A DNA stretch of 64,000 bases. Origin: Candidatus Omnitrophota bacterium. Lineage in GTDB: Bacteria; Omnitrophota; Gorgyraeia; Zapsychrales; JANLHA01. Position numbers and translations under genes: made by a program. The DNA lies in NCBI GenBank assembly GCA_030688425.1, contig JAUYIB010000007.1, positions 29,854-93,853 of the forward strand, written 5' to 3'. Below are positions 34,581 through 64,000 of the stretch, piece by piece (position 1 is the stretch's first letter; every line of letters begins with the position of its first letter). A model generated the notes under the pieces. That model worked only from the letters and a program-made list of their open reading frames with translations. It ran no database searches and was not told where the DNA came from.

Positions 34581-35459
34581 ATGATTTTTCTTGCTCTGAC
34601 ATTGGCTTTTCTGGCTGGATTTTCTTTTATCTTAGGGCTTTTTCCCGCCGAGGAGGAGTATCGCGCCACATTGCAGGCCTTTGGATATGACCTGCGCTCT
34701 GCCAAGAAGAAGAAAAGCCCTTTTGCTTTCATCCGGAAAATCGCCCTTGTCAATAAGCCCATCTGCGCCGGCCCCCTGAGACAGAGAATCGCCAGGGATT
34801 TGTCGATGGCGCACGTGGTCATGACGCCGGAGGAATTCTTTTTCTTGAAGGAGATGGGGGTTGTTTTTACCATGCTCTTGACGTATCCGATGATCCAGCC
34901 GGACATGATGACGTTCTGGTTTTTGATGTCCTTTTCCATCGGATATATGCTCCCCGAGTACTGGCTGAAAGGGAAAATCAAGAAGGTCAAGAACACCATT
35001 ATCAAAGAGTTGCCGGACGCCATCGATCTTTTGGGCCTTTGCGTCAACGCGGGGCTGGACTTCATGCTTGCCCTCAAGTGGGTGGTTGAAAAGTCTCCGA
35101 CGTCTGTCATGACCAATGAGTTGAACGTTCTTTTGCAGGAAATCAACGTTGGGAAAACTCGGAGAGACGCCCTCAAGGACCTTTCGACCAAATATAATCT
35201 TCCGGATCTTTCCAGTTTCTCCCGGACCCTGATCCAGGCCGACAAAATGGGGACATCGGTCTCCGAGGCCTTGAATCTTCTGTCCGAGGACATGCGTCTT
35301 GCGCGTTTCCGCCGGGGCGAGCAGATGGCTATGAAGGCCCCGATGAAGCTGCTGGTCCCCCTGCTGTTTTTTATCTTTCCTGTTGTCGGCATTCTTGTCG
35401 CCGGCCCGATCTTCCTCGATTTTATCGAAAGCAATCCGCTCGAAAATCTGGCACAATAA
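34581..35459 (+). CDS. tadC: Flp pilus assembly inner-membrane protein TadC
   Basis: T2SS-F-type domain (LPDAIDLLGLCVNAGLDFMLALKWV...LIQADKMGTSVSEALNLLSEDMR). The start is uncertain. ATG 34581 (MIFLALTLAFLAGF) is preferred, because the track start 34464 lies inside the intergenic hairpin. Confidence 0.85.
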   Translation: MIFLALTLAFLAGFSFILGLFPAEEEYRATLQAFGYDLRSAKKKKSPFAFIRKIALVNKPICAGPLRQRIARDLSMAHVVMTPEEFFFLKEMGVVFTMLLTYPMIQPDMMTFWFLMSFSIGYMLPEYWLKGKIKKVKNTIIKELPDAIDLLGLCVNAGLDFMLALKWVVEKSPTSVMTNELNVLLQEINVGKTRRDALKDLSTKYNLPDLSSFSRTLIQADKMGTSVSEALNLLSEDMRLARFRRGEQMAMKAPMKLLVPLLFFIFPVVGILVAGPIFLDFIESNPLENLAQ

Positions 35460-42800: not shown

Positions 42801-45800
42801 GCAGAAGTCATTTTCGGAAAAGACAGCCTGGCCGCCATGGCGTTGACCACGGTTTTGGGCACGGAGTATGTGACCCAGGTGGCCAAGCTCGAGGGTATGT
42901 TGCAGGACGCCGAAGTCCTTCTGGGGGATGCCAGCGGCAGGACGCACAGCGGTCCGTTCGCTGTTATGGTCGAAGACCAGGTGAAAACAAAAGTCAGCGG
43001 CAAGGCATTTTACACGGCGTCTCCGGTAATTGAGCAGACAGCGGTCTCCCTGCTGGGCGGCACGAAAAAGGATCAAATGGTGCTGACCGTTGATCCCGAT
43101 TATATTGCGCCAAACGCCGACGCGAGTAAAGTCCACTCCAGCGGTATTTCCGGGACCGGCAGCCAATTGATCTTCACGGAGCAGGGCACCGTTGAAGGGG
43201 TCTTCAGCGGAGTGGTGAACGCCGTCGGCCCGGCCGTCACTACGGCCCCCAACGCCTGGACCATGGAAGCCGCCCCTGTTACCACGGCCGTCTTCCCTAT
43301 ATTTATGATGATTCCGTTGCTTGGTAAAGTGCAAAATCCGGACGATCAGAAAAAGGACCAGTCCATCCTCGCGAAATCAGGCCAAAAGAAGGAGGGGTAC
43401 GATATTGTTGGTATCTTCGATGAGCTTGATCCGGTCGGGACAGAGACAGTCAATGGTCAGGCATGGAATATCTATGAGGTGGATATCTCTCAAAAATCTT
43501 TTTCAGGACAATTGTTTGCGGGAGAAGCCACCGGCAACAACGCCCAGAATTTTGTCGGGGTTGAGGTTGTTCAGAATGCGGACGGGACCATCACGCATAA
43601 AGCGAAACTCATGCCCCAGGGGAAAGACATCGTTTTCAACAGGGAAGGCGCCGGTCAAGGCCGCGTGACCTATCAGGCTGATCCTTTCCAATACGGCTTT
43701 GGGAGCCGGACCACCGGAGAAGACGGCAGGGAGAAAATCACTTACGCGTCCATGACCCAGTCCCTGGACAGCTTTTATCTTGAGAACCGCCAGGAAAGCA
43801 TGATTACCCCGAACGCGACCAATTCCAACGATCGCGTCGTCAAATTGAATGACGAAGGCGACGTGGCCAGCGTGGATGCCGGCCTTTTCAAGAATTCTCT
43901 GTTTGTCGGCGGCGTGAGAAAGGAAGGGCAGGATGCCGCAGCTCCGCTTGTTAATGCTATTAACGCGTTTTTGCCCGGAGGCGCTCAATTGTCTTTGCCG
44001 GAAGGTCTGGAATTTTCTGTCCCGGTTTCCCAGCAGTTGACCTACATGGGCAACGGCGCCATTTCCATCAAAGACGGTCAGTTAGTGGTCTTGGACGGCA
44101 GCGAGACCATGATCGTTTCTGAAGAGGGGACGAAATCGAGCCTGGTGAACGGCGGGCAGGACATGGTCAAGATGCGCCAGACGCGCGTCGGGTATCAGAA
44201 GGACGGCATCCAGGAATATTCTGTTTTGATCCAGACCGAATATCCGGAAGTCTTGTCGGGCGGGGAAGTCACCGGCAGCAAGGCGAAACTGGTTCTTCCG
44301 GCGGCAGCCGGTTTGATGAGGGAAGTTTCTGCGGAAAGAGATTACACCCAGCCGAATCTCAACAACGCGGACGTTCAGCCGGATTTTGATATCGTGAGGG
44401 GCGATGTGAAGGTTTCCGGATCCGACATCTTGCTGGCCGGCCAGGTGTGGGGCAAAGTGACGCCGTTCTGGTCGCAGGACGGAGACATCGCCAGCAGCTA
44501 CATCAAAGTCCAGTTCGGTCAGGTGGCGGACACCTATAATCCTTTTAACGTTGATATCAAGATCGAGCAGCTGGAAAGTTTCATGAAGGCGGTGGATAAG
44601 ACGTATCGCGGTGGCGCAGCGACCGCAGAGCAGCTGCAGTCCGGCATGAAAGAGGCCGGTTACAAGATTTCAAATGACGACGCGACCAAACTGGCCAAGG
44701 TGTTCAACGAAAGCCGTGCAGCCAACACCCCCGAAGCCAGAGAGGCCTTTAAGCAGGCCAGCCAGCAGGTTCTGAATGACAAGAATGAAAATCCCGCCGC
44801 CCAGGGGCAGGGCCCGCCCGGGGAAGTCGCCCTTGTCGGCCATGTTCCTGGCACGGAGTATAATTTCTTTACCGCCGCCGATCCGAGCCAGTTCCGACCC
44901 ACCGGAGACAGTGCAACGAGTCCAACCCAACCGAATGCCCCCGGGATGGATTCCCAAAGCAATACCAATAGACCTCCCTCAAAGATTGAAGCACCAGCCC
45001 CTCAAGCCGCAGATAATCAAGGCCAAATGGACATGCTCGCCTTGGCCAAGCCGACCGTTTTACCGGAACTTCCTCCCGAATCTCCGGTTCAGCCGGAACA
45101 GCAGCCCGATGCTTCTCAAAGTGAGAAATTATTGCGATCCGCCGCAGACATTTTAAAAAACTGGACAAATTCTATGGGCGCCGCGGCGGGCGACAATCTC
45201 GGCGAACCTTTCCCGGCAGAAAGCGATAGGCCGGCGACGTTGATTTTGGGCAATGTCATTTCCAATCGTGCGGCGTTGAAGCCCAGTGCGGACGGTTCAG
45301 GGGTTGATTCTCTGACCATCCAGGGTGACGGTGTTGTGCCGGAAACCAAGGAAACTTCGGAATTCGCCAAAGCCGCGGAAACCGGCCAGCCGTTTTTGAC
45401 CATGCAGATGGAGAAGGATCCTGCGACGGGCCAGAATGTGTTTCGAATCAACGGCAAGAATGTCGACCCTAAGGTCATGAACGAATTCGCCCAAAGCTTC
45501 TCGGAATATGTTTCCAGCCAATCCAAGGGCGACGTGCAGATCCTTGTTTCTAATGATTCTTCCAGCACAACCGTGATTCCGCAGGCCACGGTCACGGGGG
45601 GTGAACTGGCCATGGCTGGTTCTGCTCCTAATGCCGGCGCGGCCCAGAGCGAGGCGCCGTTGACGCCGGAAAAACAGAAACTCATGAATTTCCTGAACAA
45701 TCCGTCGTCCCAACTGACGCCGGCGGTTCCAATAGCAGCGGGAGAACTCACCGAGGTTCCCGGAGGTTCTCCCTCCAGCATGGGAGCGTCGGACAAGGCC

Positions 45801-48800
45801 AGCCCTGACCAGCAGATTCCCGAAGGTGTGGAGGGCGGCCTGGTGTTCCGTCTCGGCCAGTGGGACGCGAAGCGGGGCCGCAATGTCTTTACCGGTTTTG
45901 TCACGCATGCCCCGGGCGGGATCGGCAGCTATTACGGCATTGACAAAAGCGCCGCAGACACGGCGACCGGGATCCCCACAACGCTTTCTTTCCAGAGCAG
46001 CACCTACTCGGACAGCGTCAAGATCAGTCTCTATCGCAAGGACGCCAACAGCACGGATTCCCGGTTTGTCGGTATTTACATCGATGACAAGGGGCAGAAG
46101 ATTCCGTTCAACATGAAAAATTACGCCGGCCTCGGGGTCATCGAGGGGTTGAAGTATGGCCTGACGGATCTGGCGTCCAACCGCCAGGCGCTGGATGAGA
46201 ATTTTGTTTTTGCCGTTAGTGAATTCGCCAAGATTTTCAACTCCTATGGATTTGCCGGCAGCAAAGACGCCCCGTTCGAGGCATTCCTGCAGGGGATGAA
46301 AAACAAACAGGAGGGGCAGACGCCGTATAACTTCGGCGAGAATTTTGTCAACGCCCTGGTGCAGGCCGAGATGACGCACGCGATTGAGCTGTATAAGAAG
46401 GCCTTGAGCTCCAGGGATATGAAGGAATACAACGCGTATAAGAATAAGAAAATCGACGCGTTAGCTCTTCCTCTTGCTGAAGCTCTGGGTCTGAACAGCA
46501 ATGATCAGCTCAAGACCGAGGTCAAGAACTTGGTCTGGCAGCAGTTGCTCGAGCTGGAAGGCCGGATCAGGATGGGCGGCGCGGACGTTGCCGGCTATGC
46601 GTCTGCAGAAGATTCCGTGAAGCCGGGCCTCCAGGAGTTCCGTAATATCCAGTTCGCGAAGACAGAGAAAGAGATCGGCAGCTTCACGACCTCCGGCAGC
46701 GACGGGAGAGATATTCTCGCGGCCATCCCGAAAGAAGAAATGGCAGAGATCAATAAACTGGCCTTGGCCCAGGATGTCCGAGAGATCGCCGCCCAGGCTG
46801 GGGACGAAACCGCCCGGCAGGCGGTCTTGAATAATCCGTCTTTGTCAGAAGATGGCAAAGTCAATCTTGTTAAAGGGATTTTGGACATCTCATCTCCGGC
46901 CAGCCTTGAAGAAGCAAAGCAAAGGGTTTTGAATGATCCGAGTCTTTCTGCCGATCAGAAGGCTGGCCTGGCAAACAAGTCCCCTGAAGAAGTTGCTTTG
47001 GCTCAGCCGGACCTTTGGTTGAAGAACAGCGCTTCCGCCGCGCAAGTTGCGTTGGTCCGTTCCGACCTCTGGGCCGGCATCGGTACCGCAAAATTGGTTT
47101 TGACAGCCGCGGACGGCAGCCCGATCCGCCGCAATCAGACCGATACGAATATGATGGGCGATCTGGCCCTGGTGACGAAGAACGACGAAGGCAAATATGT
47201 GTATCTCAACGATCAGGGCGAAAAAGTCGTGACCGAAACCCTGCCAGCCAACGCCCAGGCCCTGATGTTTTATAATCCGCAGAAAAAATTGAACGGCGCG
47301 CAGACAGGCGAAGGGTTCATCAACTGGCAGTTTGCCGGCGGCGAGGCGCGCGTCCTGAAGGACGGCGTTGACGGCGGAGTCTGGGGCCCGGCCAACTGGA
47401 CGTTCGTGGAAGGCCCGGACGGCAATGCCCTGACAGAAACAAAGACCGGCTTGATTCTGGTGAACGAAAAAGGAACGCCGGTCCTGCAGAACGGTCAATT
47501 TGTTCATCTGACCAAACGCGACGATGGAAACTTTGTGGACGCTGAAGGTAACGTGGTCCCTGGAAATGGCTTTGTCGGGCCGTTGCAGCCCGGCCAGGCT
47601 CTGGCGAAAGTTGCGCCGCTGGGTATTTATTTGACGGGCGCCCAGCAGGGTGTCAGCACGGCGGCGCTGTCTGACGGGTCGGGGTGGAACGAAAACGCCG
47701 GCATCGGGCAGAAGATCCGGTTCAACGACCAGGGCGCCTGGAATCTGCTGTTGGAAAACGGCCGCGTGGTCTTACCGGGCGACTATTCGACAATGAATAA
47801 GGTTGGTGATGCTGGCGCCTTGGGCACGGGTCTCGGGTTCTTCTCCCCGAACACTCCTCAAGGGAAGGGCGGCGCCAATCAAGAGCCAAAACTCTCTTTA
47901 ACGCCCCATGTCGCCAAGGACGGGATTCTTGATAACGGGAATATTGTCGCTGCGTTGGGCCAGGGCATCGCCAACGGCGGCAAAGATTCCACCGCCGGCC
48001 TTGAGTTCGTCGGCCTGAACATGGTCAGGGGACGGGCCCAGTTCGCTTCGACCCTCGGCCAGCAGGGTGTTTCGATCTCTGCGGATCAGAACGAAGTCAA
48101 CGCGGCGAGAAGGTGGCTGACCACCTTAGGCCAGGGCGGCGGCGAAGAGTTGACGATGATGGCCACCGGCCAGAAATTGATTATCATGCCGACCCTGCCG
48201 GTTCTGGAAAGGAAGATCAATCAGATCCGCGCGGCCAAGACGGACGGCGTTGTGGTGGATACGGATACTCAGAGGATGGGTGTGGTTTCCAAGAAAGATT
48301 TTAACGCTGCTCCGGACGCCAAGCTTGGGTTCAAAACGCCTGTCAGAAGCGGGCAGTTGATCGTTCAGGGGACAGTTAAAGGCGAAGATGGCAAGAATAA
48401 AATCGTATTCAAAGTGATCGACGCCGAACGGCTTATGGGCGCTCCGGAGAAGTGGATCCAGGGGACATTTCTGAATCCCAAGTCGGGGAAAACGGAAATT
48501 GTTTATGTCAGGGCCTCGGATTGGGAACAGCGCAATTTGACCGACAGATTGAACATTCCCTACCAGGGGGAATACGGCGGGTTCCGGCACACGCATGCGC
48601 TGGTGACCATCGCGGGGCTCAGCAAGCAGTTTGAGCTGGAAGAAATGAAGGCCGAGTTGGTTTCCGAGGGCGGTATCCGTGCCGGCATGCGCGTTGACCA
48701 GCTGTTATATGCCGCGGAAGACGATGTCACGGGATCGGACAATATCGACATGTATTTAACGGATGCGAAAGGGCACAGGGTCGCCGGAACAAAAGTGTCC

Positions 48801-57800: not shown

Positions 57801-60800
57801 GACATCCAGAGAGCCCTGGTCGAATTTGATCTCGCTGCCGACAAGTCCGTCTTTAAGAAAAAGGCCGAGCCGGCCGCATACGCTTCCGCGGGCACCGGCA
57901 GAACCATGGGCGCGTCCGAGAAATCAATGTTAAAAAAGCTGACGCCCGTTGCTCCGGCAACTTCCATGGCTGGCCTGCAGACGGCTGCAAAACCTCAGAC
58001 GTTGAGTGTCCAAACAACAACGGCAGATGTCAGTTCCGCCGCCGGCCAGGTGAAGGTGCCGGACATCAAGGCCCCGCCTGCCGGCGTTCAGCCGTCCGCT
58101 GTTCCTCCGGCCGCCCAGATCAAGGCCGCCACCCCGCTTCTTCCTCCGGGTCTGACCCCGGCGATGCTCCCGCTGAATTTAACCCAGGCCCCCAAGTCCG
58201 ACGCGCAGAAGATCGCTTCCGCCCAGCGCCAGGAAAGCCAGAGCCCGTCTTCCTTGCTGATCCGTCCGAGCGTTCCGGAAATTCCGCGCACCCAGTCCCC
58301 TGTTGTGGCCATGGCCTCGGCCGCGCCGCAGATGCAGTCGGTGAAAGGGGCGGCGGTCGCTTCCAGCAACATCTCTGACACGACCGGCCGCGGCAGCCAG
58401 GCGCCTTCGGTGGAACGCCAGACGTCGTTTGTGTCTGCCCAGCTCACCGATCGTTACGGCAACGTTATCGGATCCATGCAGAAGGGCATGAGTTCCACTT
58501 CCGCTCAACCCGGGACGGTCGGCCAGGTCGTCATGGCTTCCCAGAAGGAAGGCGCTCAGCCGCAGCCTGGGATCGACATTTCCAAAGATATGGCCAGCGT
58601 TTTCGGATTGAGACCTGTCGAGCCCGGCGAGCTGTCTTCCATCACGAACCCGCAGGCGTCCAAGGCCACGGCCGCGAGAGACCGGGAGTTGACCTCTCCC
58701 AGAGCCAAGCAGCAGAGAGAGCTGACCAGCGTCCGCGGGAAAGCGAAGACGGCCAAAGATAATTCCATGCTGTCCAAGAAGACAGTCGCCGCCGGAATGT
58801 TGGCCGGGGCTTTGGCGATGAACACACTGGGCGCGGATTTGGATGCCGTCCGTCGCACGACAATTTTTGAGAGACCCACGATCACAAAAGGAACGAATGA
58901 CGCAATCCCGCTGATCGTCAATTTCGGAAGACAAAAAGTCGACGTCTCGGTCATGTACAACTCAAGGAAGAGCATGGATGTTAATGATCCTGCGACCGTC
59001 AAGAAATTGGAGCGTGTCGCCGATGTCTTTGTGCAGGTCCGTGCCTTGGCCCCGGAGGCCTTTCATCTTATTAAGACGATCAGGCTCGATAACACCGATC
59101 TCCAAACCGCACAGGCAGGCCCGGATGACGGTTCCATCGATGTCCATGTGGATGACCTTTTCAAGCTCAACCCCACCAACCGCATGGAACTGGCGATGGG
59201 CCTTAAGGACGGCGAGGAAAAAGCGTTGATCACTGTGATTCATGAATTGGGTCATTTGGTCCAGGGGACCATGACCAAGGCCGAGCAGCGGGAGTGGTCG
59301 AGGTTGTCCTTCCCGAAGGCTACCGCCGGCGATTGGGCCGATGAGGCGTTTGGCCAGGCTTATGCAGATGTTGTGCTGAGAAGAAAAACATCGGTGGATT
59401 ATTATTATCAGCGCGGCAAGCGGGAGATCAAAGATAAAGATCGTGCCAGGGCCGAAAAAGAAAACGCGAAAATGCGCGCTTTCGTTGGCCGCGTCGTTGA
59501 TCGCCGCAAGGCCGCATGGGAAAAACGTTCGGCCTTTAATAATATCCAAAATGATACGGTCGGATTTGTTCAGATCCCGTCGGACATCTCCTGGGGGGAA
59601 GTCAGCCCCCGTATCGGGTCCCCATCGGCTATCGGCGACAAGTCGATGCTGTTGTCAAAGAAGCTGGCCGCCATTAAGAATCCGATATTCGAAGAAGCCG
59701 GGTATCGCATCAATCCGCAGACGCTGTCCATCGAACCGGTTAAATTCAATAGTGATACCGAGAGACGTCAGGCGGTTTCCGCGAAGATTTCCGGCATTTT
59801 GGCCGACCCCAGCCGTTTGACAGCAATTCCAAAGGCCAAGGGCGACGCTGCCAAGGTTGAGACGATCTTAAGGATGGACGGGTATCAACAGCCGTCCGGC
59901 GAAGCTGTCCCGAGTTATATGGAAGTCGTTTCGGTTGACAACACCATGTATGTGCGAATTCCGGCCGTGGACAAGAAAACGGGAGACAGATACGTCAAGG
60001 CGAACGCCGTGGAGCTGGTCGGGTTGTTCAGAAATCTGAGCGGCCAGGAACTCGAAAGCCGTTCGAATTATTCCGGCCGCGAACTTCAGCCCGACACGTA
60101 CTGGGCGCCCAAGAAAGAATACGTCACCAAGCACCAGCCGTATTATCAAGAGAAGATCCACCCCATGGTCGCCCAGGCCATCGGCGCTTCCATCGAAGGC
60201 GGGCAGGTGACATCGCAGGAAGTGGATGTCCTGGATATAGGCGGGCATAACGGTGCGTTTATTGAATCGTTGAACAAGCAGTTGCCGAAAATTTTCCCTG
60301 ACCGGAAATTCAAATTTGAGCTGGTCGAGCGCAATGAGGGCAGTGTCAAGGCCGCCGAGGCCAAATTCAAGGGTGTGAAGAACGTGACCGTCCAGAAGCC
60401 GACGGACTTGACCCAGAAGGGTATTTCCGCCACCGGGCCGAAGGACGTGATCACCGCCATCGGCGTTTTGAACGAGCAGGTCATGTCGGCCGATGATGCA
60501 AGAAGCTTAGCGAAGCAGGCGTATGACACCTTAAAGCCGGGCGGGGTCTTCATCGTGACCGGCGGGACCCGCACGCATTTGACCGTCAGCGACCTGCAGT
60601 CCATGGGCTTTGAGGTCCGCAACACGAGCATCCCGAGCAACGTCGCCATGTTTGAAGGCGTTGAGGATTTGATGATCGCCGTGAAGACCGCCCCCGCTGC
60701 CCGTAGCAGCGCTTTGGCCCGTGCGACAACCAAAGCTGCCGACAAGTCGATGTTGAAGGACATGCGCCTTGCCAATCCGGCGGCGGAAAAGGCGCGCGTT

Positions 60801-63800
60801 GTGAATGTGGTTCGCGCAAATATCCTTGCCAATGGCCGGCTGGTTCAGGACGTGCGGTCCCTGGGCTACACAGCCGACCAGGTCCAGCAGTTTGCCACGC
60901 GCGTGGCCGATCATGTGAGCAATGTTTCCCACACCGAAACGCCGAGTTTCTCCACGACGGGCACTCTGTACCCCTACACCCAGCCGGAAGATCAAATGAA
61001 GCTGTTGCGCGCCGAATTCCGCACGATTATCGAGTCGAAGAAGAACCAGCCGGAGAGGACATTTGATCTTGTGGCGTCCGGGCTCGGCCGCCAGCCGCTT
61101 GAGGCTCAATTGGCGATGAAGGCCTTTTACGACGAATTGAAAGCCGCCGGCCAGAATCCGCAGGATTGGCAGGTCCGGTTCTACGGGATTGATTACAGCG
61201 ATGAATCGCTCAAGGGCGCCATCAAGGAGAACGGAACGAATGTCATTGACGCCTCGACCCGCGGCATGATCAAGATCATGTTCCCCGGACAGAGCATCGG
61301 CGGGAATAACCTCCAGGTCAATATTGTTGCGGCCAACCTGCTGGATGAACAGTCGCTGCGGCAGGCTCTCCCCGGCGTCAAGGCGGATGTGATTCTTGAC
61401 CGCCACACGCATTACGGCAATCATAAGGCCATGTGGGGAGATTTCGACAAGGCCTTGAACGAAGCCGAAGCCCGTAAGCAGCCGGTGAAGAATAATCTGA
61501 ACCTGTTGGGCTTTACGATCGCGGCTGTGCAGTCCAGCAACCTGATCAAGACGGTCGGCCGCGAAGGCACACTGTATGTGACCGAGCCGTATACGACTCA
61601 AAGCGAAGATAACAAATTCGGGGCCGCGGACAACTGGAAGACTGATTTCAAACCGTTTGTGCCGCCGGGGACCGAGCTCATGACCACCAACCGCATCGCC
61701 GCGGAGCTTTCCGCCGTGAATGCCGGAGCGGCTAACAGCCTGGCGTTCTCGACGCGCAATTTCCTGCCGTACGGTACTGGGATAACCCGCGTCGCGGATG
61801 TCAATGCCGTGCGCAACGCGGGTTTAAGAGATTTTCAGAGATCCATGGGTTCGGCTGTTGAAACGGCCCGGATGAGCGATCAGAATTTGAAGCTGGCCAA
61901 GGTCGGCGACAAGAGCCTGCTCACGGCCAAGGTCCAGGAACCGGAGCTTTGGGGCGGGCATGTGCAGACCAGCGTTAAGACTTTGATGAGGGATGGGGAA
62001 AAGATTGGTGAAAAGGTCAGCATGAAGCCCGCGAGCCCGGCTGACGTGACGGCCCACCCGCAGATTGCCGCCAAGAATGTCGTCGCCAATATTGAGCCAG
62101 CCATCACTGCGGGACTCAGGGCCCAGCCGCAGGTGCGCACGCCGGACATCAAAGCGCCTCAGGCGGCCGCAACGAAGATTACGACTACCCCGCTTCTGCC
62201 TCCTGCCGTGGCCACTGCGGCGACATTGAAGCCGGTCACCACCACCTTGCCGCCTGCGCCGGCCACCCTTAAACCTGTGACCACGATTCTGCCGCCCGTG
62301 ATGCCGCAGGCCAAGAAAGACACAGAACAACCCCGGACTGCCGCAATCGCTTCCGCCAGAGCCGGCGATCAGTCGATGTTGCGTAATAAATCCGGCGAAC
62401 CCCGGGAGAAACCGGTCGTGGCCGCAGGATGGAACAAGCTTGTTTCCGATCGGCTGTTGGCCCAGAACAGAAAGATCGCGTGGGAACCCAATGAAACACC
62501 GGAGCAGTTTATCGCGCAAGTCCGGGAGGGGAAGGCGGCGGAAGCCATTAACAGCTTTGTGATACGCAGGAGCGCCGGCGCCGAAGATCATGAAAGAAGG
62601 GATTATCACACGCAGGCCGTCGATTTCGCGGTAACCCAGATGGTCACGGATCGCGATTTCGCGGGGATGGAAAGATTGGTGACCCAATATAACCGGCAAA
62701 ATGTGAACATCAGTCTGCCGACACAACTGATGATCGAATCTTTGGTTGACAATAATCCCGCGCAGGCCTACGGCCGTCTGGCCCAGGCTTCCAGACTCGA
62801 TGAGAACGGCCCTCAACAGATTGTCAGCCTGGATAACATGGTTGGCCATGTCCGTCTGATCAATAAATTCCAGGGTCGGCCGGTCAGCGATCAACAGCTT
62901 GTTCAGGGGATCCGGGAGGGGATTGGGACATTGCCTCAATCCAGGGCCGCCATGGTCGCAGTCCGTGATTTTGACGCCGAGCAAACGCTGGCCCCGGCTG
63001 TCTGGCAATTGCTCAAGCGCCGCGGCCAGGATGCCGATTATCTGCATTTTGAAACCGTGAAAGATAACCTTTATGTGGGGCCGGATCAACAATTGTACTT
63101 GAAAAAAGAGCAGGTGTATCAGACGAAGCCTTTGACGGCCCATATGGACGTCAACAATCCGGTCCGCGAGTATTTTGCCTACAAGATCGGCCGCGCCATC
63201 GGGGCCAACACCACGGAAACAATCATCGCTCCGGAGAAGACCTATTCCAGAATCTCGCTTGATGAGAAAGAGACATTGCCGCAGCCGACGAAAGAACAGG
63301 CGGAGGCGGCTGATTTCGTGCTGAACGTCTTCCTGCGTGTCCCTGATCCTTCGAAAGATTTTGTCCAGAAGTCGAAAGTCGGCGACACCGTCAAGTTCTT
63401 CGATAAGGACCGCGCTTTTGACGATGATTCTGAACCTATGGGCGAAGTGAACGAGCCGCACAGCGGTTATCTGGGTAAGCTCGCTTATTACACCCGGGAA
63501 AATCAGCAGCATTGGAGCGCTCAGGATTTTGACCAGGCCACGATCTGGGAGACGATGGACCGTGTCCAGCAACTGGATATCGAAGACGTCGAGGCAGGAG
63601 CGAAACCCGAAGTCGACAGGCTCGGCACCCACGCCACCAGAGAATTGGCCCAGTATGCGAGCTTCCTGCACCGGACCCGAGGGCCTCAGTTTGAAAATGA
63701 CGTGAGGGCCGCGTTTAAGGCCCTGACCGGCGACGACCTGAAGCCGCGAGAAGTGGCCCTCCGCGAAAGAGCCCTGCGCGAAACCACGCGGCTGGCCTCC

Positions 63801-64000
63801 CAGCCGGTGGATTTGAGGCAGCGCGGCCTTTCCAGCCCCAGGACCGGAGACCAGAGCATATTAAAGGACAAGGCCGAACAGCCGGACTTCTACGGCGGGC
63901 ATTTGTTCACCAGCCGCAGAACCATCAGCCGGATCAGCATCGGCGAGCGTCTCGGGCAGATGTCGAACCTTGAAGCGAAAGTCAACCTGGTCCGGCCGGT
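36888..64000 (+). CDS. Giant multidomain membrane-anchored protein, 3'-partial (>9,037 aa in window)
   Basis: An in-frame TAA at 36882 is followed by ATG 36888. My manual translation of this frame reached 64000 without meeting a stop. All + ORFs in the supplied track within this span lie in the other two frames. The translation is globular-looking and carries several catalytic motifs (see the domain features). No obvious SD is present, so the exact start is uncertain. Confidence 0.9.
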   Translation, partial: MTDRLDKIEDQIAVANGSNSNTAISSELALSPEFSAEPIPYKSRFKTWMRAVALLVVMTFLPEQISWAFNYNPAVIWNIEDQKYIEPEFSNVQSTSAEQMVSLRIAAGIKNFLGQIVDKQDTRVQIALPGISQSEDPSRSVIVESKVTISQEHVRDIAAWLRDPAIHPLNCGVYALRDLLAQRQVNVNLEDLSLATLLVDLLNDIVRPGEQKLKTSLYSIHQIVNSYGLDFKAVKVDPQQILKLNTPFIANYESEHFVTVNAVDETNVYFTDIGRTKVEPRESFAKKLSGYVLAADLDKTDVAYEPVSDAAMAFVWGNRWVNHSDDLPGLMDGGDIALQVGMELLQLAMIFISPISFLTYIVSHIMSLLVTAGVVDQDTAFIVTTAFSAAVAAFSIISAGLQAAGQAGTEAGKTAATETGKTVATETGKAVVTETGKTVAESAVVTTAQVGAQTALQAIGNIFIQIGKAIWDAIKSVWEAIKGIFTGETFTKLWSNIADNFTMIGGTSGGAAGAGAPGVTGAVTNAASSNAMKAAAESAAAKSLAGAATKLTSGQIAQLVVKALAAGAIKAIVQLKLPEILEEALGDDFDPILKQAIVGIATSVGSELAMGTFAGIADQFGSPVLTQAMGMGEWKLGADGKTGYFDPSFGQGIAEALKSIPERFVYAGMRALGQILLKEIDEEKFGPDTLASQAFGAMIGDLGALTFRAFTDDLGFSNPVEVKKDEKGYYIEHSLGKDAEGKSIKTQKEYITVDPAKGDHVVAAGNTGRTYLMTENKFLSAFTSRVSQGAFAMAVAYGVDELAGRDATDQFKMLAGRMIGFMSQQVVTAFGPVVVDFFSGKNIAAPGKSVVADGENAQSALQYAGNNFLHNFTHFVDDDLGYGGASTKQAWTRSGFSSLQQFSQFMDHFVDATGFNQQWAEGVKDYRKQLEKQNQERPEGERYDEETIDTMVNLYAMEAHRASQAGFFNTKFAGGIISPDQYSAGGIVEGMKTTLEYIFSAIILSYSPTSRVEDPATGQMVANPDSKAVKIFRDWLGFTYRPILKRASRDGKTNVVEEYVCAPGQPCRGHTAGNKDVLFLFTKFSGKGMNNYFFNFEADQTVIDTPWVNLETGEMYVISGEYQSWFGGAADETFKTADGQSHRFIGGGGEAETAWDNDRHDKKISGVPENMSSLGIASYGHSALYSEGAVAYTAEKDGDRIVTSAASSTNYVGSDGTMNTQFSQFNPWSGKKPTGDDSFLLALAAALFAGVDPATGRFIVDQDAVNRDPAGAVGALFDLARGLFPDDANLAYKTTDENGNTVIQTSNNLVLALIENTTRVIDKSKKFIQDRGEPIIYSDESQGVYAMAAPADANETAGILAEAKGKGMYAWVGSGPEDEGKIFISSQGLKESVNETVITIAPNTELGKALSRAVRGVEGTETQSVQTTWMRLGTDGLPDRRFIIADRLLQNSWETFKDGHEEAPVFIPTMKAGELALSAGLGEILPSLQNTLDLIKKEPGKSIVFEGEGDLAQKLPGTKLSVEAQVAALKKFKEAVAAQSGVGASPEEWPEGDYSTDKLVTVLQGANYSPEKIAEAMAKPPAEQAVMIAEVDASFQLEPADPRVKNERLAEFRKEAIDQVVADTSVKQGFGAALNDNPDQVNLKVADKPLFLNDYGQAYFEGQTTILDSENRPVVVGNVNTVISLSGSRETRGEDSIRTVFTLANPNGNPTVVNENGEIVDLGSGVKAQGIAQGEGVTFGDLYQGYFGVKPSGANTVYLAEAFYTVKEGTGEIEAGRVYSKYANGSINREAYGLVTSGAEKGDSFTFSMVGEYINRAGEKSGTEGASGSSVVKAEIIDTNVQLLTAQDGAAVLLDNRPKAAAKDGQASTGGNQPGAYEIHPFSLMVRDFNAMLGPGSVIVYGSQFGQSPRSDDEKIKNAIVKVNDDGRVTFYLNGKEATLAFDGKIFHVTPPTAVIRAAKPTAAGQAAVATAEVIFGKDSLAAMALTTVLGTEYVTQVAKLEGMLQDAEVLLGDASGRTHSGPFAVMVEDQVKTKVSGKAFYTASPVIEQTAVSLLGGTKKDQMVLTVDPDYIAPNADASKVHSSGISGTGSQLIFTEQGTVEGVFSGVVNAVGPAVTTAPNAWTMEAAPVTTAVFPIFMMIPLLGKVQNPDDQKKDQSILAKSGQKKEGYDIVGIFDELDPVGTETVNGQAWNIYEVDISQKSFSGQLFAGEATGNNAQNFVGVEVVQNADGTITHKAKLMPQGKDIVFNREGAGQGRVTYQADPFQYGFGSRTTGEDGREKITYASMTQSLDSFYLENRQESMITPNATNSNDRVVKLNDEGDVASVDAGLFKNSLFVGGVRKEGQDAAAPLVNAINAFLPGGAQLSLPEGLEFSVPVSQQLTYMGNGAISIKDGQLVVLDGSETMIVSEEGTKSSLVNGGQDMVKMRQTRVGYQKDGIQEYSVLIQTEYPEVLSGGEVTGSKAKLVLPAAAGLMREVSAERDYTQPNLNNADVQPDFDIVRGDVKVSGSDILLAGQVWGKVTPFWSQDGDIASSYIKVQFGQVADTYNPFNVDIKIEQLESFMKAVDKTYRGGAATAEQLQSGMKEAGYKISNDDATKLAKVFNESRAANTPEAREAFKQASQQVLNDKNENPAAQGQGPPGEVALVGHVPGTEYNFFTAADPSQFRPTGDSATSPTQPNAPGMDSQSNTNRPPSKIEAPAPQAADNQGQMDMLALAKPTVLPELPPESPVQPEQQPDASQSEKLLRSAADILKNWTNSMGAAAGDNLGEPFPAESDRPATLILGNVISNRAALKPSADGSGVDSLTIQGDGVVPETKETSEFAKAAETGQPFLTMQMEKDPATGQNVFRINGKNVDPKVMNEFAQSFSEYVSSQSKGDVQILVSNDSSSTTVIPQATVTGGELAMAGSAPNAGAAQSEAPLTPEKQKLMNFLNNPSSQLTPAVPIAAGELTEVPGGSPSSMGASDKASPDQQIPEGVEGGLVFRLGQWDAKRGRNVFTGFVTHAPGGIGSYYGIDKSAADTATGIPTTLSFQSSTYSDSVKISLYRKDANSTDSRFVGIYIDDKGQKIPFNMKNYAGLGVIEGLKYGLTDLASNRQALDENFVFAVSEFAKIFNSYGFAGSKDAPFEAFLQGMKNKQEGQTPYNFGENFVNALVQAEMTHAIELYKKALSSRDMKEYNAYKNKKIDALALPLAEALGLNSNDQLKTEVKNLVWQQLLELEGRIRMGGADVAGYASAEDSVKPGLQEFRNIQFAKTEKEIGSFTTSGSDGRDILAAIPKEEMAEINKLALAQDVREIAAQAGDETARQAVLNNPSLSEDGKVNLVKGILDISSPASLEEAKQRVLNDPSLSADQKAGLANKSPEEVALAQPDLWLKNSASAAQVALVRSDLWAGIGTAKLVLTAADGSPIRRNQTDTNMMGDLALVTKNDEGKYVYLNDQGEKVVTETLPANAQALMFYNPQKKLNGAQTGEGFINWQFAGGEARVLKDGVDGGVWGPANWTFVEGPDGNALTETKTGLILVNEKGTPVLQNGQFVHLTKRDDGNFVDAEGNVVPGNGFVGPLQPGQALAKVAPLGIYLTGAQQGVSTAALSDGSGWNENAGIGQKIRFNDQGAWNLLLENGRVVLPGDYSTMNKVGDAGALGTGLGFFSPNTPQGKGGANQEPKLSLTPHVAKDGILDNGNIVAALGQGIANGGKDSTAGLEFVGLNMVRGRAQFASTLGQQGVSISADQNEVNAARRWLTTLGQGGGEELTMMATGQKLIIMPTLPVLERKINQIRAAKTDGVVVDTDTQRMGVVSKKDFNAAPDAKLGFKTPVRSGQLIVQGTVKGEDGKNKIVFKVIDAERLMGAPEKWIQGTFLNPKSGKTEIVYVRASDWEQRNLTDRLNIPYQGEYGGFRHTHALVTIAGLSKQFELEEMKAELVSEGGIRAGMRVDQLLYAAEDDVTGSDNIDMYLTDAKGHRVAGTKVSVDIGEIKLGTTDAEVAFNGHQVELARGVSLEDVLAGREATQAEWERGFEVSWYQKLWRSDNRIVRVPVADESGNVSYLYREVDDGTFEGKIKGEPIEISSLDYFGENANVRLANESAAVGFWGHLFDSFDTDRNDDNMVAASFDAGGNAHVGIIDFEPTLLGHLVTDEYADSKTGDVVVARGVLNRDDGVKEFFKTGDSADTMATWIGSIDAITAPITVALALTGVGNLANAGKEGAKQAGIRMATEMVKRKLATDAAKILLSETGKAVGRVGLNYAKNYLVISGVSLGLEEAITYHYTGGLMSSDNVVRSLLLSHGFTAAARGLKTVALAEQLKTLQAAAQTSKFFNTPARAAASSLAITTAATTGVSIAGEIVSKGGWDRADVKTAAIRGALLGPVVFSSIYGGSKLVAFSGGGIADYGKLALQTAVLPGVTYGAYGFGTSIADDVQAGREISFADAAFKGGKYGLWAMGVGAGLTLGSRGVLAFSKSGKSLVAVAKTVKTPAMQPYNSLTSAQKFAYVRNVILWRAAGGGAGLAAGNAYSLATRGDFLPTDANIAAFAAGAIFIKLRNPKQYFAAGIQRLGGVTVAGEGAAASKIPILAIPKMVSHGATGFAGAGVLWEGTKGVIGGVARYIDGDPGMYSKAEQFDSKFQLMSTYANTIGGGMSAGLWMGPLIGFAMAGAKTHFGNLVMENQGFVGTTSLVIRAARNGFRPGTVEKLATQYTKTNSSNWLHKALGLTKTAAGELEGNYLAKQVAMVDHLAVFLGATDILNAVNSDALTALALEDPEMAKKISGDHHPLSQKGQEEIMKTAGEIALWEAIVLLPQPGGWPQAKGPRAPPELGYHDGPGYHDGPGYHGSGEGKGQPRTFRDAFGYFREGEDSFAYRERRSPTLLQDPQAQLDPKKEIDRYLGTLPEGERAELDSYSQQAGPMHPDTEAVVAVPVAGHQEAKNIYRTLSNFADQRDSRGSRINPNSFEILLFVNHPEGTSAEATLAEVARFKQDNPNVNVRVVHQTFGAGEFTIGRVRKSTTDLVLKRSQERPEGSDKEVVIISNDADMKSMSPIYISSVVEAFKANPRADAMLGKIDWDNAAYEKSPFVHIGTRMFQYLDAIYRGKHKRIGSSGANYAFRGSTYSAVGGYFRSDRITEDVRLGELFRSARGGNRDSYRGRFLYGSAKMEIQTDARRAMDAVARGLSPAEQWSGGNFGANDALRMKDWLAGEGFDLAQIRTPAFRAKLQDMFRRTLYEYHPNFGPAERRVLGFMGIEYTLEKASRVSPEGQNAVKQRIAELDAQRLAALEKGNTEGAGKIEGQISDLSNIVKRMQEVTTLPVFTDVSKLAAGLEGWHQARGNKPASPERGPAPSTGPPSGKGGRETQGFAFDNGQQKTTRFAEGNGETWQGVVDGHTQGLDASIHAGLKNGTIQRRTVTYQGSKYRTYEFFDVKTGEVKLRIFRGNGVNRYEYVDPSAETTMGRKGGGYVSLAPRDAIGTRQGKDKIVIVHDGSEAVRNHEMTEARVILQQRSFRDGRMRASSAEHARNLTEKDSHDYVADVVGFRGEETSRFSGMLRPVEPAMSGPRMERVQPPAMAPPVEAPLFRLPTTNAPLLPPGLSRGRASEGREVIAFASDNFDSKKEPTKDRADRLAKAAKDLYAGKPIQDAGLSPKETKYAKEIHSIMRTMEAEGDGKGGSISLKGRDEQVFNIASFYVTAKETGKITVSSDTGSGKSEAALGVIKHFQRSDPDLTIVAAFPQKVVGEVVGRADMAGANDGRVNKKFEKGKINVTSLDGVFEVLHETVRTGEKLDSRRTILLVDETDKLFRHSSHVTGSREEGSALLELQKEGNPQATRAVESLDRNMRQFQQANQSLEEMVAEKGLHQVLVNDGFNVTFKSESGRKEFLQRFRSRLSGEQEAVPEAELLKRADALAKEVWEGMYPGQKPDANSQNGFVLYKEGGFTAPNTIPSDRTAAQAKVVRSGGTLEHFINATMSETRNPTTAHDVVNAFDRFLGATATAESTRMSHEIEGVEIVQKAPEKDYVKDVKPVLDSRARKGESYTDAILENLSRPELSEEGRITLASTFLAKAVDDTVSRLRSKAQAEGRAPEYIEGEEAYRHQRGDKEIVTLVAREDPNNPGFLNEGSEKAVRSLIERIQNNPNEEANILVLGLSSGSNLLGIVDALKVKIRANPAEARNLPKVNELFFGIEAEAEIGQFMSRAKEDPQTGRLSPSKIREAIILIENDPHIPSAEYAAAKAALEIADPAAREQAVRSAFSRMIRGHQARMEANSIMGNVHTTSQTAGRISKPELLAKLDQHLRETDQRTTRDHLEASGQKHVQVPTTSGQGYETFVLSSSSPAGIEAISVTNTGDENNKLIGINQTLNYRSGLFYHKDDEEQKNPIAMAVTTDVGGKPQTQKMSVEAVSPAQSSLIGGTTGLAVKVTDAKITGTPVSLGDQITFTKGVGVVSAAGAREPKTIIVGGRFGEQIGANQFRLPYEEDGTTTLQLVRNDKNEIADVERATIAAGKKAIDFGGFVLSPAQTWNLKNNLIQDAKGRNVKAVRAIPTALGVTTMAFDIGETYQIGRDVVDLKGVDGDKRITVGMSPTYRVTEREDGMDELVRQDIELPQDRVEIRTPGGVLTLSKGDYRESSGVVRDSSGNIKGMIFDNGHASAVSNGKLVLSDYSKAGVGLKISAGVQQAIDKGKAEFETIEMEVSPELAADKQFGGHFLDVLKTASVKADGTRVVTTSPVALKSYLDQGQGEKYVQETFLGALNNAPIKWAYKGREGLKVTSVADNPGSHPVLSNAVQTAAAHWKGVADNMADDEVLPVQLRSGETLDLTRAQIQAMATHLAKMQTGGETLTTGQKSHGVMMIEGYSAEIQEKMVEDILQNPAAYEIKEGFTPTQKLRIAHFMADKMLQGHQGTGGDVTGREGRYVYLFDVGRPDIGKQIFKGREDLLGRLEQSKPAGLSEADEMAMIIEHEALSFLGKESDPANRVTLSHDEVVDIQRALVEFDLAADKSVFKKKAEPAAYASAGTGRTMGASEKSMLKKLTPVAPATSMAGLQTAAKPQTLSVQTTTADVSSAAGQVKVPDIKAPPAGVQPSAVPPAAQIKAATPLLPPGLTPAMLPLNLTQAPKSDAQKIASAQRQESQSPSSLLIRPSVPEIPRTQSPVVAMASAAPQMQSVKGAAVASSNISDTTGRGSQAPSVERQTSFVSAQLTDRYGNVIGSMQKGMSSTSAQPGTVGQVVMASQKEGAQPQPGIDISKDMASVFGLRPVEPGELSSITNPQASKATAARDRELTSPRAKQQRELTSVRGKAKTAKDNSMLSKKTVAAGMLAGALAMNTLGADLDAVRRTTIFERPTITKGTNDAIPLIVNFGRQKVDVSVMYNSRKSMDVNDPATVKKLERVADVFVQVRALAPEAFHLIKTIRLDNTDLQTAQAGPDDGSIDVHVDDLFKLNPTNRMELAMGLKDGEEKALITVIHELGHLVQGTMTKAEQREWSRLSFPKATAGDWADEAFGQAYADVVLRRKTSVDYYYQRGKREIKDKDRARAEKENAKMRAFVGRVVDRRKAAWEKRSAFNNIQNDTVGFVQIPSDISWGEVSPRIGSPSAIGDKSMLLSKKLAAIKNPIFEEAGYRINPQTLSIEPVKFNSDTERRQAVSAKISGILADPSRLTAIPKAKGDAAKVETILRMDGYQQPSGEAVPSYMEVVSVDNTMYVRIPAVDKKTGDRYVKANAVELVGLFRNLSGQELESRSNYSGRELQPDTYWAPKKEYVTKHQPYYQEKIHPMVAQAIGASIEGGQVTSQEVDVLDIGGHNGAFIESLNKQLPKIFPDRKFKFELVERNEGSVKAAEAKFKGVKNVTVQKPTDLTQKGISATGPKDVITAIGVLNEQVMSADDARSLAKQAYDTLKPGGVFIVTGGTRTHLTVSDLQSMGFEVRNTSIPSNVAMFEGVEDLMIAVKTAPAARSSALARATTKAADKSMLKDMRLANPAAEKARVVNVVRANILANGRLVQDVRSLGYTADQVQQFATRVADHVSNVSHTETPSFSTTGTLYPYTQPEDQMKLLRAEFRTIIESKKNQPERTFDLVASGLGRQPLEAQLAMKAFYDELKAAGQNPQDWQVRFYGIDYSDESLKGAIKENGTNVIDASTRGMIKIMFPGQSIGGNNLQVNIVAANLLDEQSLRQALPGVKADVILDRHTHYGNHKAMWGDFDKALNEAEARKQPVKNNLNLLGFTIAAVQSSNLIKTVGREGTLYVTEPYTTQSEDNKFGAADNWKTDFKPFVPPGTELMTTNRIAAELSAVNAGAANSLAFSTRNFLPYGTGITRVADVNAVRNAGLRDFQRSMGSAVETARMSDQNLKLAKVGDKSLLTAKVQEPELWGGHVQTSVKTLMRDGEKIGEKVSMKPASPADVTAHPQIAAKNVVANIEPAITAGLRAQPQVRTPDIKAPQAAATKITTTPLLPPAVATAATLKPVTTTLPPAPATLKPVTTILPPVMPQAKKDTEQPRTAAIASARAGDQSMLRNKSGEPREKPVVAAGWNKLVSDRLLAQNRKIAWEPNETPEQFIAQVREGKAAEAINSFVIRRSAGAEDHERRDYHTQAVDFAVTQMVTDRDFAGMERLVTQYNRQNVNISLPTQLMIESLVDNNPAQAYGRLAQASRLDENGPQQIVSLDNMVGHVRLINKFQGRPVSDQQLVQGIREGIGTLPQSRAAMVAVRDFDAEQTLAPAVWQLLKRRGQDADYLHFETVKDNLYVGPDQQLYLKKEQVYQTKPLTAHMDVNNPVREYFAYKIGRAIGANTTETIIAPEKTYSRISLDEKETLPQPTKEQAEAADFVLNVFLRVPDPSKDFVQKSKVGDTVKFFDKDRAFDDDSEPMGEVNEPHSGYLGKLAYYTRENQQHWSAQDFDQATIWETMDRVQQLDIEDVEAGAKPEVDRLGTHATRELAQYASFLHRTRGPQFENDVRAAFKALTGDDLKPREVALRERALRETTRLASQPVDLRQRGLSSPRTGDQSILKDKAEQPDFYGGHLFTSRRTISRISIGERLGQMSNLEAKVNLVRP
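37330..37780 (+). other. Giant ORF domain: C39-like papain-fold cysteine peptidase
   Basis: HPLNCGVYALRDLL has its Cys codon at 37398-37400. NYESEHFVTVNAV has its His codon at 37653-37655, 85 residues later. YFTDIG supplies an Asp 16 residues after the His. This spacing is as in bacteriocin-processing C39 peptidases. A TM helix (WMRAVALLVVMTFL) precedes it and hydrophobic helices (37890-38100) follow. Confidence 0.55.
38112..38207 (+). repeat. Four tandem 24-nt coding repeats (T-E-[AT]-G-K-x-[AV]-x)
   Basis: The units are ACAGAAGCGGGGAAGACGGCGGCG, ACGGAAACAGGGAAAACTGTAGCG, ACGGAAACGGGAAAAGCGGTGGTC and ACGGAAACGGGGAAAACGGTGGCT. All are in frame in the giant ORF. Confidence 0.85.
49420..50860 (+). 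other. Giant ORF region: Gly/Ala-rich hydrophobic block (about ten candidate membrane helices)
   Basis: Candidate segments include ITAPITVALALTGVGNLA, AAIRGALLGPVVFSSIYGG, YGLWAMGVGAGLTLGSRGVLAF, ILWRAAGGGAGLAAGNAYSLA, IAAFAAGAIFIKL and IGGGMSAGLWMGPLIGFAMAGA. This is judged by eye, not by a TM predictor. Confidence 0.45.
51600..52440 (+). other. Giant ORF domain: GT-A fold (GT2-like) glycosyltransferase with DxD
   Basis: AVVAVPVAGHQEAKNIYRTLSNF is a beta1-type start. VVIISNDADM carries the D-A-D at 51966-51974. GANYAFRGSTYSAVGGY and ITEDVRLG also match conserved GT2-family motifs. Confidence 0.55.
53850..55500 (+). other. Giant ORF domain: SecA-motor-like / SF2 helicase-like P-loop ATPase
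   Basis: Walker A is SSDTGSGKSE (53958-53981). A DExD-like Walker B is ILLVDETD (54225-54245). A motif III-like GATATAES lies at 54819-54842. The order and spacing recall the SecA DEAD motor (..TGEGKT.., ..VDEvDS.., ..GMTGTA.TE..). Confidence 0.5.
58900..59420 (+). other. Giant ORF domain: zincin-like metallopeptidase (HELGH)
   Basis: ALITVIHELGHLVQG has HEXXH at 59241-59255, in a ~170-aa segment bounded by two DxSML motifs. Confidence 0.45.
60190..60700 (+). other. Giant ORF domain: class I SAM-dependent methyltransferase
   Basis: Motif I is VLDIGGHNG (60228-60254). The acidic post-I is FELVERN. LKPGGVFIV is also present. This is the Rossmann methyltransferase order. Confidence 0.6.
61060..61610 (+). 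other. Giant ORF domain: second methyltransferase-like module (CheR-type topology)
   Basis: FDLVASGLGRQPLEAQLAM..., WQVRFYGIDYSDESLKGAIKENG and NIVAANLLDEQSL...ADVILDRHTHYG parallel the CheR pattern (WSAGCSTGEEPYSlAm / I.ATDI....L..A..G / F...NLL....fD.IFCRNV.IYF). The SAM-binding residues are not conserved in an obvious way. Confidence 0.35.

Follow-up and report, generated by a model that had tools for sequence, protein, structure and literature searches.

The question raised by this locus is whether a giant bacterial protein works as one chain or is cut into pieces, and what a pentapeptide that recurs between its modules has to do with it. We analysed 64,000 nucleotides (nt) of a Candidatus Omnitrophota bacterium (GenBank assembly GCA_030688425.1, contig JAUYIB010000007.1, positions 29,854 to 93,853 of the forward strand; this whole stretch is hereafter the window), in which a stop-free stretch in frame +3 (36885-63998) holds one open reading frame (ORF) from the ATG at 36888, from which all amino acid (aa) numbers are counted. 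To our knowledge, no known proteins are longer than those of Omnitrophota, which reach ~147,000 aa, and the motif gives the first concrete candidates for places where such giants might be cut. The original prediction, made from the window sequence alone, had listed eight copies of D-[KQN]-S-[MI]-L followed by a basic residue, including variants, and all eight were present at the positions given, in frame in the one ORF; a ninth copy was added here. The conclusion that this motif is a standardised module-boundary marker between non-homologous modules is strongly supported by the following evidence.

36888..64000, + strand: giant ORF, stop-free frame from ATG, with a C39 N-terminus
43356..43370, + strand: motif DQSIL, aa 2157, beside the membrane, ten residues after the helix aa 2128-2146
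57840..57854, + strand: motif variant DKSVF, aa 6985, in tandem with the next copy
57918..57932, + strand: motif variant EKSML, aa 7011, in tandem with DKSVF
58758..58772, + strand: motif DNSML, aa 7291
59637..59651, + strand: motif DKSML, aa 7584
60741..60755, + strand: motif DKSML, aa 7952
61908..61922, + strand: motif DKSLL, aa 8341, the ninth copy, absent from the earlier list
62367..62381, + strand: motif DQSML, aa 8494
63849..63863, + strand: motif DQSIL, aa 8988, followed by a second GGH-box head; the ORF continues

The motif was far more frequent than the composition of the protein predicts. Strict D[KQN]S[MI]L occurred six times, where 1,000 composition-preserving shuffles of the protein gave an expectation of 0.024 and never more than 2 copies; loose [DE][KQN]S[MIV][LF] occurred eight times against 0.20 expected, and all seven S[MI]L tripeptides of the giant protein were inside the motif. 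A hidden Markov model built from the nine copies found no further copy in the giant protein. Neither strand of the window had the strict motif or the listed variants outside the giant ORF. A looser pattern, [DE][KQNR][SA][MILV][LFM], gave three strays: EQAVM (41634), which is within the giant ORF, EQAIL (12132) and, on the minus strand, ERSLL (53372). The last 2,053 aa hold all but one of the nine copies. Chance or compositional recurrence, for which the length of the protein (>9,000 aa) and its richness in A, G, S, K and L would speak, is refuted by these counts, by the shuffle maximum, by the distal clustering and by the equivalent motifs that 20 other proteins carry at these junctions (see below), and its probability is negligible.

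When 250-aa chunks of the protein were compared with the whole by BLAST, only two weak repeats were detected (aa 7018-7113 with 8379-8491, and aa 8307-8375 with 8957-9024); therefore, the modules are otherwise unrelated. The near-absence of internal repeats also ruled out the motif as part of a longer repeated domain. The second repeat is a ~70-aa unit spanning the motif at two places in the window (61806-62012 and 63756-63959; E = 9e-8), which holds K.QEPE[LF][WY]GGH[VL].TS after the motif, and these two junctions share a longer tail-plus-head. Sequence rich in Ala, Gly, Ser, Thr and Arg had been reported before each copy; it was present at seven of the nine sites (0.40-0.57 vs 0.38 overall) and missing at 43356, which follows a transmembrane helix, and at 57840. 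A segment S-L-[LF]-I-D-S before the C39 domain (window 37260-37340) is motif-like in some homologues (EKSVLI, ENSVLI, DQSLLL, EKSILI); because its first two positions are not conserved and it looks like a strand of the fold, it was left out of the motif count, and it could be such a strand or a pseudo-substrate.

The copies in the distal part bound the following modules:

57933..58757, + strand: Pro/Thr/Ala/Gln-rich spacer module, of which aa 7018-7113 resemble aa 8379-8491
58773..59636, + strand: putative zincin module with the sole HExxH of the protein (HELGH, nt 59241-59255)
59652..60740, + strand: methyltransferase module 1, class-I S-adenosylmethionine (SAM) fold with an N-terminal alpha/beta subdomain (Pfam, AlphaFold2, Foldseek)
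60756..61907, + strand: second enzyme-like ("CheR-like") module, homologous to aa 54-395 of protein P0029
61923..62366, + strand: small GGH-box head, then a Pro/Thr-rich spacer
62382..63848, + strand: module of ~490 aa without a recognisable family (Pfam scan of the 494-aa interval 62367-63848)

Each distal interval was originally described as holding exactly one recognisable module. This was borne out for methyltransferase 1, which matched Pfam Methyltransf_12 and for which the AlphaFold2 model of aa 7560-7975 (mean predicted local distance difference test score, pLDDT, 84.6, with a confident core) retrieved class-I SAM methyltransferases in Foldseek. The putative zincin is recognised from HELGH, had no Pfam or PDB match and gave an uninformative AlphaFold2 model (pLDDT 37); the CheR-like name found no support in the databases, the second module having no Pfam or PDB match and its homologues being the same unnamed module only. 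DKSLL at aa 8341 divides the CheR-like interval from the small spacer module. Pfam over all 9,037 aa detected only C39 (aa 212-295) and one methyltransferase domain (~aa 7782-7888), and no relatives of aa 8494-9037 were found in the genome scan. The two Pro/Thr/Ala-rich spacers (57939-58226 and 62022-62360) are alike, with 35% identity and TPLLPP, and each stands in an interval without an enzyme domain.

We searched exhaustively with aa 7280-8479 using phmmer and tested positional equivalence in distant homologues. The relatives had at most 39% identity, only to the two methyltransferase-like modules, and 22 of them were 2,000-7,000 aa long; word-indexed searches with aa 6900-9037 and aa 2000-2600 returned no close orthologues of the distal region. 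Strict DKSML was absent from the 22 large multi-module homologues, and about half of the large homologues have a recurring pentapeptide of their own:

[RK][SA]E[LMV]R: P0031 with 21 copies (0.12 expected), P0143 with 20, P0100 with 14, P0125 with 13, P0179 with 13, P0036 with 9, P0087 with 9 and P0050 with 5
[IM][TAS]GAMHE: P0029 with 7 copies (0.01 expected)
GARL[AST]: P0098 with 6 copies (0.07 expected)
D-x-[SA]-M-[LIMV], the type of the window: P0033 with 8 copies (0.24 expected), and P0055, P0064, P0079, P0035, P0049 and P0112
RMS[EDV]: P0061 and P0153

D-[KQN]-S-[MILV]-[LF] is one dialect of a wider motif with the core [R/K/G/Q/N]-[S/A]-x-[L/M/V/H]. The literature agreed with the earlier statement that no such motif had been described, as full-text searches (RSELR with Omnitroph*; Archaeovorin) found no junction motif; the exact D-[KQN]-S-[MI]-L proved too narrow, being only one member of this family. 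Three of the ~20 multi-module proteins were traced to Omnitrophota records, and P0087 and P0179 are named Candidatus Omnitrophica.

The same dialect may extend over several genes. Locus L005 (ENA ERZ27247725 k141_2366117; 3214-21877) has five consecutive genes on the same strand (1104, 1135, 2424, 510 and 977 codons), whose products carry similar Sec signal peptides (MIRKLISI..F.LQST.AYAL) and 2-7 copies each of [IM][TAS]GAMHE; the first copy comes right behind the signal peptide, 33-49 aa into the protein, and no copy stands at the C-terminus of these proteins. Downstream of the GAMHE genes are a CpaE-like ATPase and a secretin. Thus one dialect runs across five adjacent genes, and the dialect differs between proteins from different sources. 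P0033, a complete gene of 3,731 aa with a signal peptide, shares its assembly (GCA_030429765.1) with L023, a C39-giant homologue 45% identical to the window N-terminus; within this single comparison of P0033 and the window, the dialect tracks relatedness. P0031 is a complete gene of 7,070 aa with ordinary neighbours. Its aa 3389-3672 (L004:20165-21016), between two motifs, form a HEMAH module with a weak M48 match; the window interval 58758-59636 and this module are both ~290 aa long with a single HExxH near the middle, and no significant sequence similarity was found between the window zincin and the HEMAH module. Tandem copies in P0031 enclose a conserved 16-residue spacer (aa 3180-3205, RAELR-QSERIGTASVLPGHLA-KSELR), and the same arrangement was observed in P0125 (aa 4237-4262, RSELR-QSDPIGTASALPGPLA-KSELR); cutting at both sites of such a tandem would free a short conserved peptide, and 57840/57918 is the comparable pair in the window.

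The dialects occupy the same junctions. In the alignment of methyltransferase 1 with six homologous modules, its C-terminal DKSML (aa 7952) was column-matched with RSELR, RSEMR and RSEVR (K with R, S with S, M with E, L with L/M/V, and K with R), GARL[AS] of P0098 was a few columns off, and the N-terminal methyltransferase junction had its own dialect in every aligned protein that reached it. The second module is bounded by DKSML (aa 7952) and DKSLL (aa 8341) in the window and by GAMHE at 47 and 421 in P0029. Moreover, when window junctions 7584, 7952 and 8341 were projected through phmmer coordinates onto 20 multi-module homologues, 34 of 40 projected junctions were at most 40 aa from a dialect motif (median offset 15.5 aa), as against 19% for random positions (maximum 45% in 2,000 trials), and no motif was inside any aligned domain core of these 20 homologues. 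BLAST alignments among the 14 motif-bearing proteins crossed a motif site in only 18 of 129 cases vs 56.5 +/- 12 for random sites, and the 18 crossing alignments set motif against motif with matching offsets, even across dialects. The Pfam methyltransferase domains of P0036 each stay inside a single interval between motifs. Alignment and projection thus place the motif at the domain junctions of homologues, where its absence would have spoken against the original prediction.

The motif occurs only where modules are concatenated, and single-module homologues are without it. The 15 homologues of methyltransferase 1 that stand alone (305-344 aa) carry no motif and finish with ...QLYVLRK, and both window junctions project outside them (median 32 aa before Met1 and 18 aa beyond the C-terminus). 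The disorder expected beside the motif was also found in the methyltransferase 1 model, where the 24 residues before DKSML (aa 7584) have pLDDT <50 and a confident domain follows. Among 129 sites in 13 proteins, the flanks from -6 to +9 were poor in hydrophobic residues (0.13-0.26 vs 0.34), the central position was S in 95 and A in 34 and nothing else, and the median motif spacing was 307 aa, about one enzyme domain.

The codons of the motif vary synonymously in the window (Ser TCC/TCG/TCA/AGC; Asp GAC/GAT; Leu CTG/TTG/TTA/CTC), in the RSELR-type motif of P0031 (five codons each for Arg and Leu) and in the D-x-A-M-L motif of P0033; therefore, selection acts on the peptide, and the junction motif is under peptide-level selection. 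A nucleotide-level signal, namely an internal ribosome-binding site with a start codon, a module-shuffling recombination site or an RNA hairpin, might be suspected since position 4 is often Met or a residue with alternative start codons among its codons, and since CGCAGCGAACTGCG, a possible coding of RSELR, would be palindromic (an idea only). It is contradicted by the free codon variation in the window and P0031, by the absence of any purine-rich or Shine-Dalgarno-like tract upstream of the window copies, and by position-4 codons that do not start translation (8 of 21 in P0031 cannot be start codons; those in the window include ATC, GTC and ATA), so that we consider such a signal very improbable. 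Ser in the RSELR motif of P0031 (L004:10001-31213) was never encoded by AGY (0 of 17 Ser sites vs 32% AGY gene-wide), and the only alternative to Ser there is Ala (GCN), which fits a position moving only between TCN and GCN.

What reads the peptide is a matter of weighing. We see about an even chance that the motif is a site recognised by a partner, most likely a processing protease, and sets apart the modules of an exported multi-enzyme polyprotein. Under this reading an endoprotease would recognise each copy and divide the exported chain there into its separate enzymes; the pieces released would be spacers, the putative zincin, methyltransferases and others; and the recognising partner would probably co-evolve with its substrates, because the dialect is uniform within one locus and different between sources. 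The candidate protease would be the C39 domain of the giant protein itself, with the HELGH module or an unlinked protease as alternatives. The C39 domain looks catalytically intact, since Cys171 (NCG), His256 (EHFVTV) and Asp272 were invariant in an alignment of 19 homologous sequences. The invariant small residue, with Ala fully replacing Ser, favours a tight protease subsite. A phosphorylated, glycosylated or nucleophilic serine does not fit Ala in place of Ser, and self-cleavage by N-to-O acyl shift at Ser is unlikely with Ala at 34 of 129 sites.

Export is suggested by Sec-type signal peptides on the L005 proteins and P0033, and by secretin or Tad genes that adjoin motif-bearing or C39-giant genes in the window, L002 and L005, and the carriers contain SAM-dependent methyltransferases, kinases and helix-turn-helix domains. 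Because signal peptides and secretion neighbours are combined with enzymes that use cytoplasmic cofactors, we speculate that the products may be exported effectors acting inside another cell, which is in line with the predatory or parasitic lifestyle proposed for Omnitrophota (West-Roberts et al. 2023, bioRxiv 10.1101/2023.11.21.568195).

Several observations weigh against processing. We infer cleavage at the motif from the sequence, so that of the two original suggestions, processing sites or standardised linkers, the boundary marker stands and processing is a presumption. The residue pairs before the nine window motifs are KK, AA, AS, AK, IG, AA, VG, AG and TG, and the double glycine of C39 substrates was not found: Gly occupies -1 in five of nine window sites and never -2, and RSELR sites have no Gly at all and variable preceding residues. 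("SEL" of RSELR was also considered as a double-glycine leader and rejected, as there is no Gly-Gly 6-7 residues downstream.) The C39 domain and the distal modules may sit on opposite sides of the membrane. No peptidase domain was detected in P0036, P0033 or P0029, the L005 neighbours of P0029 having been checked through precomputed Pfam annotations only; therefore, a protease acting in trans would be needed. In L005 no module needs release at the copy after the signal peptide. Only one copy is in the first 6,984 aa of the giant protein, and the N-terminal regions of C39 giants (the longest + strand open frame of each of 80 loci, at most ~3,900 aa, mostly the start of the C39-giant gene) gave 13 D-x-S-M-L-type matches in 223,000 aa, approximately the compositional rate; therefore, the motif belongs to the distal enzyme-module chain, and processing, if any, concerns that chain only.

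The chain might instead stay whole, with the motif as an uncleaved docking site, one copy per module, for a Tad-like/secretin export component, a chaperone that keeps modules unfolded, or a host or prey factor. The L005 proteins, with a copy 33-49 aa from the N-terminus and none at the C-terminus, suggest a tag preceding each module, and the adjoining secretion genes (window, L002, L005), the single dialect across the five adjacent L005 genes and the motif as a conserved island in variable linkers all agree with docking. Tandem copies 11-33 aa apart are hard to fit with one tag per module and favour cleavage over docking; in addition, P0033 and P0035 have no copy after the signal peptide, stand-alone homologues work without the motif, and we know of no secretion system that reads a repeated internal pentapeptide. 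We consider docking, the main rival of processing, unlikely. A passive structural linker, a helix N-cap or hinge insulating adjacent folds and copied with the linkers at module fusion and having no specific reader, would explain why a short helix of low confidence begins exactly at DKSML in the AlphaFold2 model (model residues 25-34), D, S and T being common helix N-cap residues. The motif has a pLDDT of only ~52-69 in that model (64-69 in the tail with the next motif), five contiguous positions are kept over dozens of junctions while the surrounding linker varies, and uniformity within a locus together with divergence between sources points to a co-evolving reader, which makes the passive linker clearly improbable.

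Returning to proteolytic processing, we further propose, tentatively and somewhat short of an even chance, a phylum-wide and lineage-tuned junction code whose core would be [basic or G]-[S/A]-x-[L/M/V] and whose reader would be a protease evolving along with it, with the giant genes as operon-like polyproteins. If this code is true, one exported polyprotein would be cut into dozens of enzymes or effectors, a cellular counterpart of viral polyproteins, and the code would supply a rule for dividing giants into functional units. If cleavage were confirmed, polyprotein expression would be established as a cellular strategy and giant genes recast as arrays of exported effectors.

Polyprotein junction motifs are known from viruses and some toxins; they are new for bacterial giant proteins and in lineage dialects. 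Viral polyproteins have repeated junction sites, as in picornavirus 3C (Q|G), coronavirus Mpro (LQ|S/A/G) and alphavirus nsP2. Like them, the giant protein is one long product of unrelated enzymes with a candidate cysteine protease in the chain itself and a short lineage-specific junction motif in which one set position is always a small residue; unlike them, it is encoded by a cellular chromosomal gene of at least 9,037 codons, its cleavage is presumed, the motif belongs to the distal chain, and some carriers lack a protease. In Vibrio MARTX toxins an internal cysteine protease domain (CPD) cuts after Leu in the linkers between effectors. Like these toxins, the window protein is a very large, presumably exported chain of unrelated enzymes, with short linkers that have a conserved Leu-containing site, a candidate protease in cis, and cargo enzymes that need the cytoplasm, such as SAM-dependent methyltransferases. 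The window protein differs from them in having no C80 CPD domain and no glycine-rich repeats (Pfam scan, 9,037 aa), in the C39 type and N-terminal place of its candidate protease, and in a five-residue motif that varies by lineage.

C39 bacteriocin peptidases (ComA, LahT and HlyB-type domains) cleave double-glycine leaders. The window domain belongs to the same family with Cys, His and Asp conserved, and Gly or a small residue often stands before the motif in three dialects (xG|D, TG|AMHE, xG|ARLA), as in C39 substrates; in contrast to those substrates, the sites lack both a Gly-Gly, Gly-Ala or Gly-Ser pair at -2/-1 and an LSxxELxxIxGG leader, and the fusion partner of the domain is a giant protein, not an ABC transporter. 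The site of the subtilase SKI-1/S1P is R-x-hydrophobic-[L/T/K/F], for example RSVL|S. K-S-M-L, R-A-M-L and R-S-E-L resemble it in pattern only, with a basic P4 and Leu at P1, whereas the window has no S8 domain and E at P2 of RSELR does not fit. We take the polyvalent proteins of phages and conjugative elements to be a further comparison class; the context of the giant gene is chromosomal, near the replication origin, and not that of a phage, plasmid or conjugative element.

Previous work proposed cleavage of Omnitrophota giants by C39 or S8, the latter domains heading other giants of this phylum, stated the cleavage points as unknown, and noted that this missing information prevented the proteins from being divided for structure prediction (West-Roberts et al. 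2023). The words "cleavage", "processing", "polyprotein", "linker" and "motif" do not occur in Nielsen & Lui 2026 (bioRxiv 10.64898/2026.06.07.730766), who reported a PF03412 architecture cluster of 24 proteins. Neither of these two papers on the class describes a junction motif, and the motif and its dialects are new here. The motif can be found by a per-protein k-mer count, which offers a principled splitting into modules for annotation and structure prediction, and it supplies exact bonds to seek in metaproteomes and short substrates for C39 and S8 domains.

The N-terminal region of the giant protein has the following features:

37032..37085, + strand: putative first hydrophobic anchor, aa 49-66 (from sequence; conserved in the homologue alignment), preceded by the basic stretch YKSRFKTWMR
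37365..37787, + strand: C39-type cysteine peptidase domain (Pfam PF03412 at aa 212-295, E = 2.4e-9)
37905..38099, + strand: two or three transmembrane helices, aa 340-404 (Kyte-Doolittle scan)
43269..43325, + strand: transmembrane helix, aa 2128-2146 (Kyte-Doolittle scan)

Judged from its sequence, the gene belongs with the giant proteins of Omnitrophota that have a C39 peptidase at the N-terminus, a class reported by West-Roberts et al. 2023; we assigned it there because its N-terminal homologues carry C39 and are Omnitrophota where named. The first 451 aa had 28 homologues, every one with a C39 domain, and those with a source name were Candidatus Omnitrophica or Omnitrophota. A genome scan with the N-terminal region gave 80 GTDB loci, mostly with Omnitrophota titles; many (including L006, L010 and L012) bear the title "uncultured Planctomycetales bacterium", and the names Elusimicrobia and Caldithrix occur on single records; these titles on C39-giant loci are probably labelling or binning artefacts. 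The window protein shares with the described C39 giants the N-terminal C39 beside transmembrane segments, a length of thousands of residues in which few domains can be recognised, methyltransferase modules scattered along the chain, neighbouring secretion genes, and homologues labelled almost entirely as Omnitrophota. Its ORF is at least 9,037 aa long and runs past the window end, the length threshold of Nielsen & Lui, whose corpus holds 5,761 proteins at or above it, being 10,000 aa; an exact-match search of metagenome contigs with the final window bases, for the rest of the gene, found no match. Only three cysteines were present among the 9,037 residues (aa 171, 1061 and 1067), aa 171 being the predicted catalytic Cys of C39, and short tandem repeats of (T/A)ETGK(T/A)V directly follow the transmembrane cluster (window 38100-38220).

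The surroundings of the giant gene in the window are as follows:

842-2431, - strand: yidC, in the chromosomal origin region
3366-4703: dnaA, then dnaN and a DciA-like gene
6365-8821: gyrB
8885-11452: gyrA
11519-11595: tRNA-Glu
17370..35459, + strand: Tad-like pilus/secretion locus directly upstream of the giant ORF, with a secretin at 17370, a CpaE/CpaF-type fusion ATPase at 19364, and TadB/TadC-like genes at 33544 and 34464

The Tad-like locus is a possible export route for the giant protein, and L002 repeats the arrangement of TadB/C and a C39-giant gene. A look-up of the TadC-like product found no match, as the called start probably differs. Three large ORFs of the Tad locus (584, 498 and 1,388 aa; window 22369-32922) had no Pfam match, and a comparable 1,129-aa ORF without a match stands before TadB/C in L002. 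The G+C content decreased to ~0.45 over 22001-26000 and was 0.41 in the first 2 kb vs ~0.56 elsewhere.

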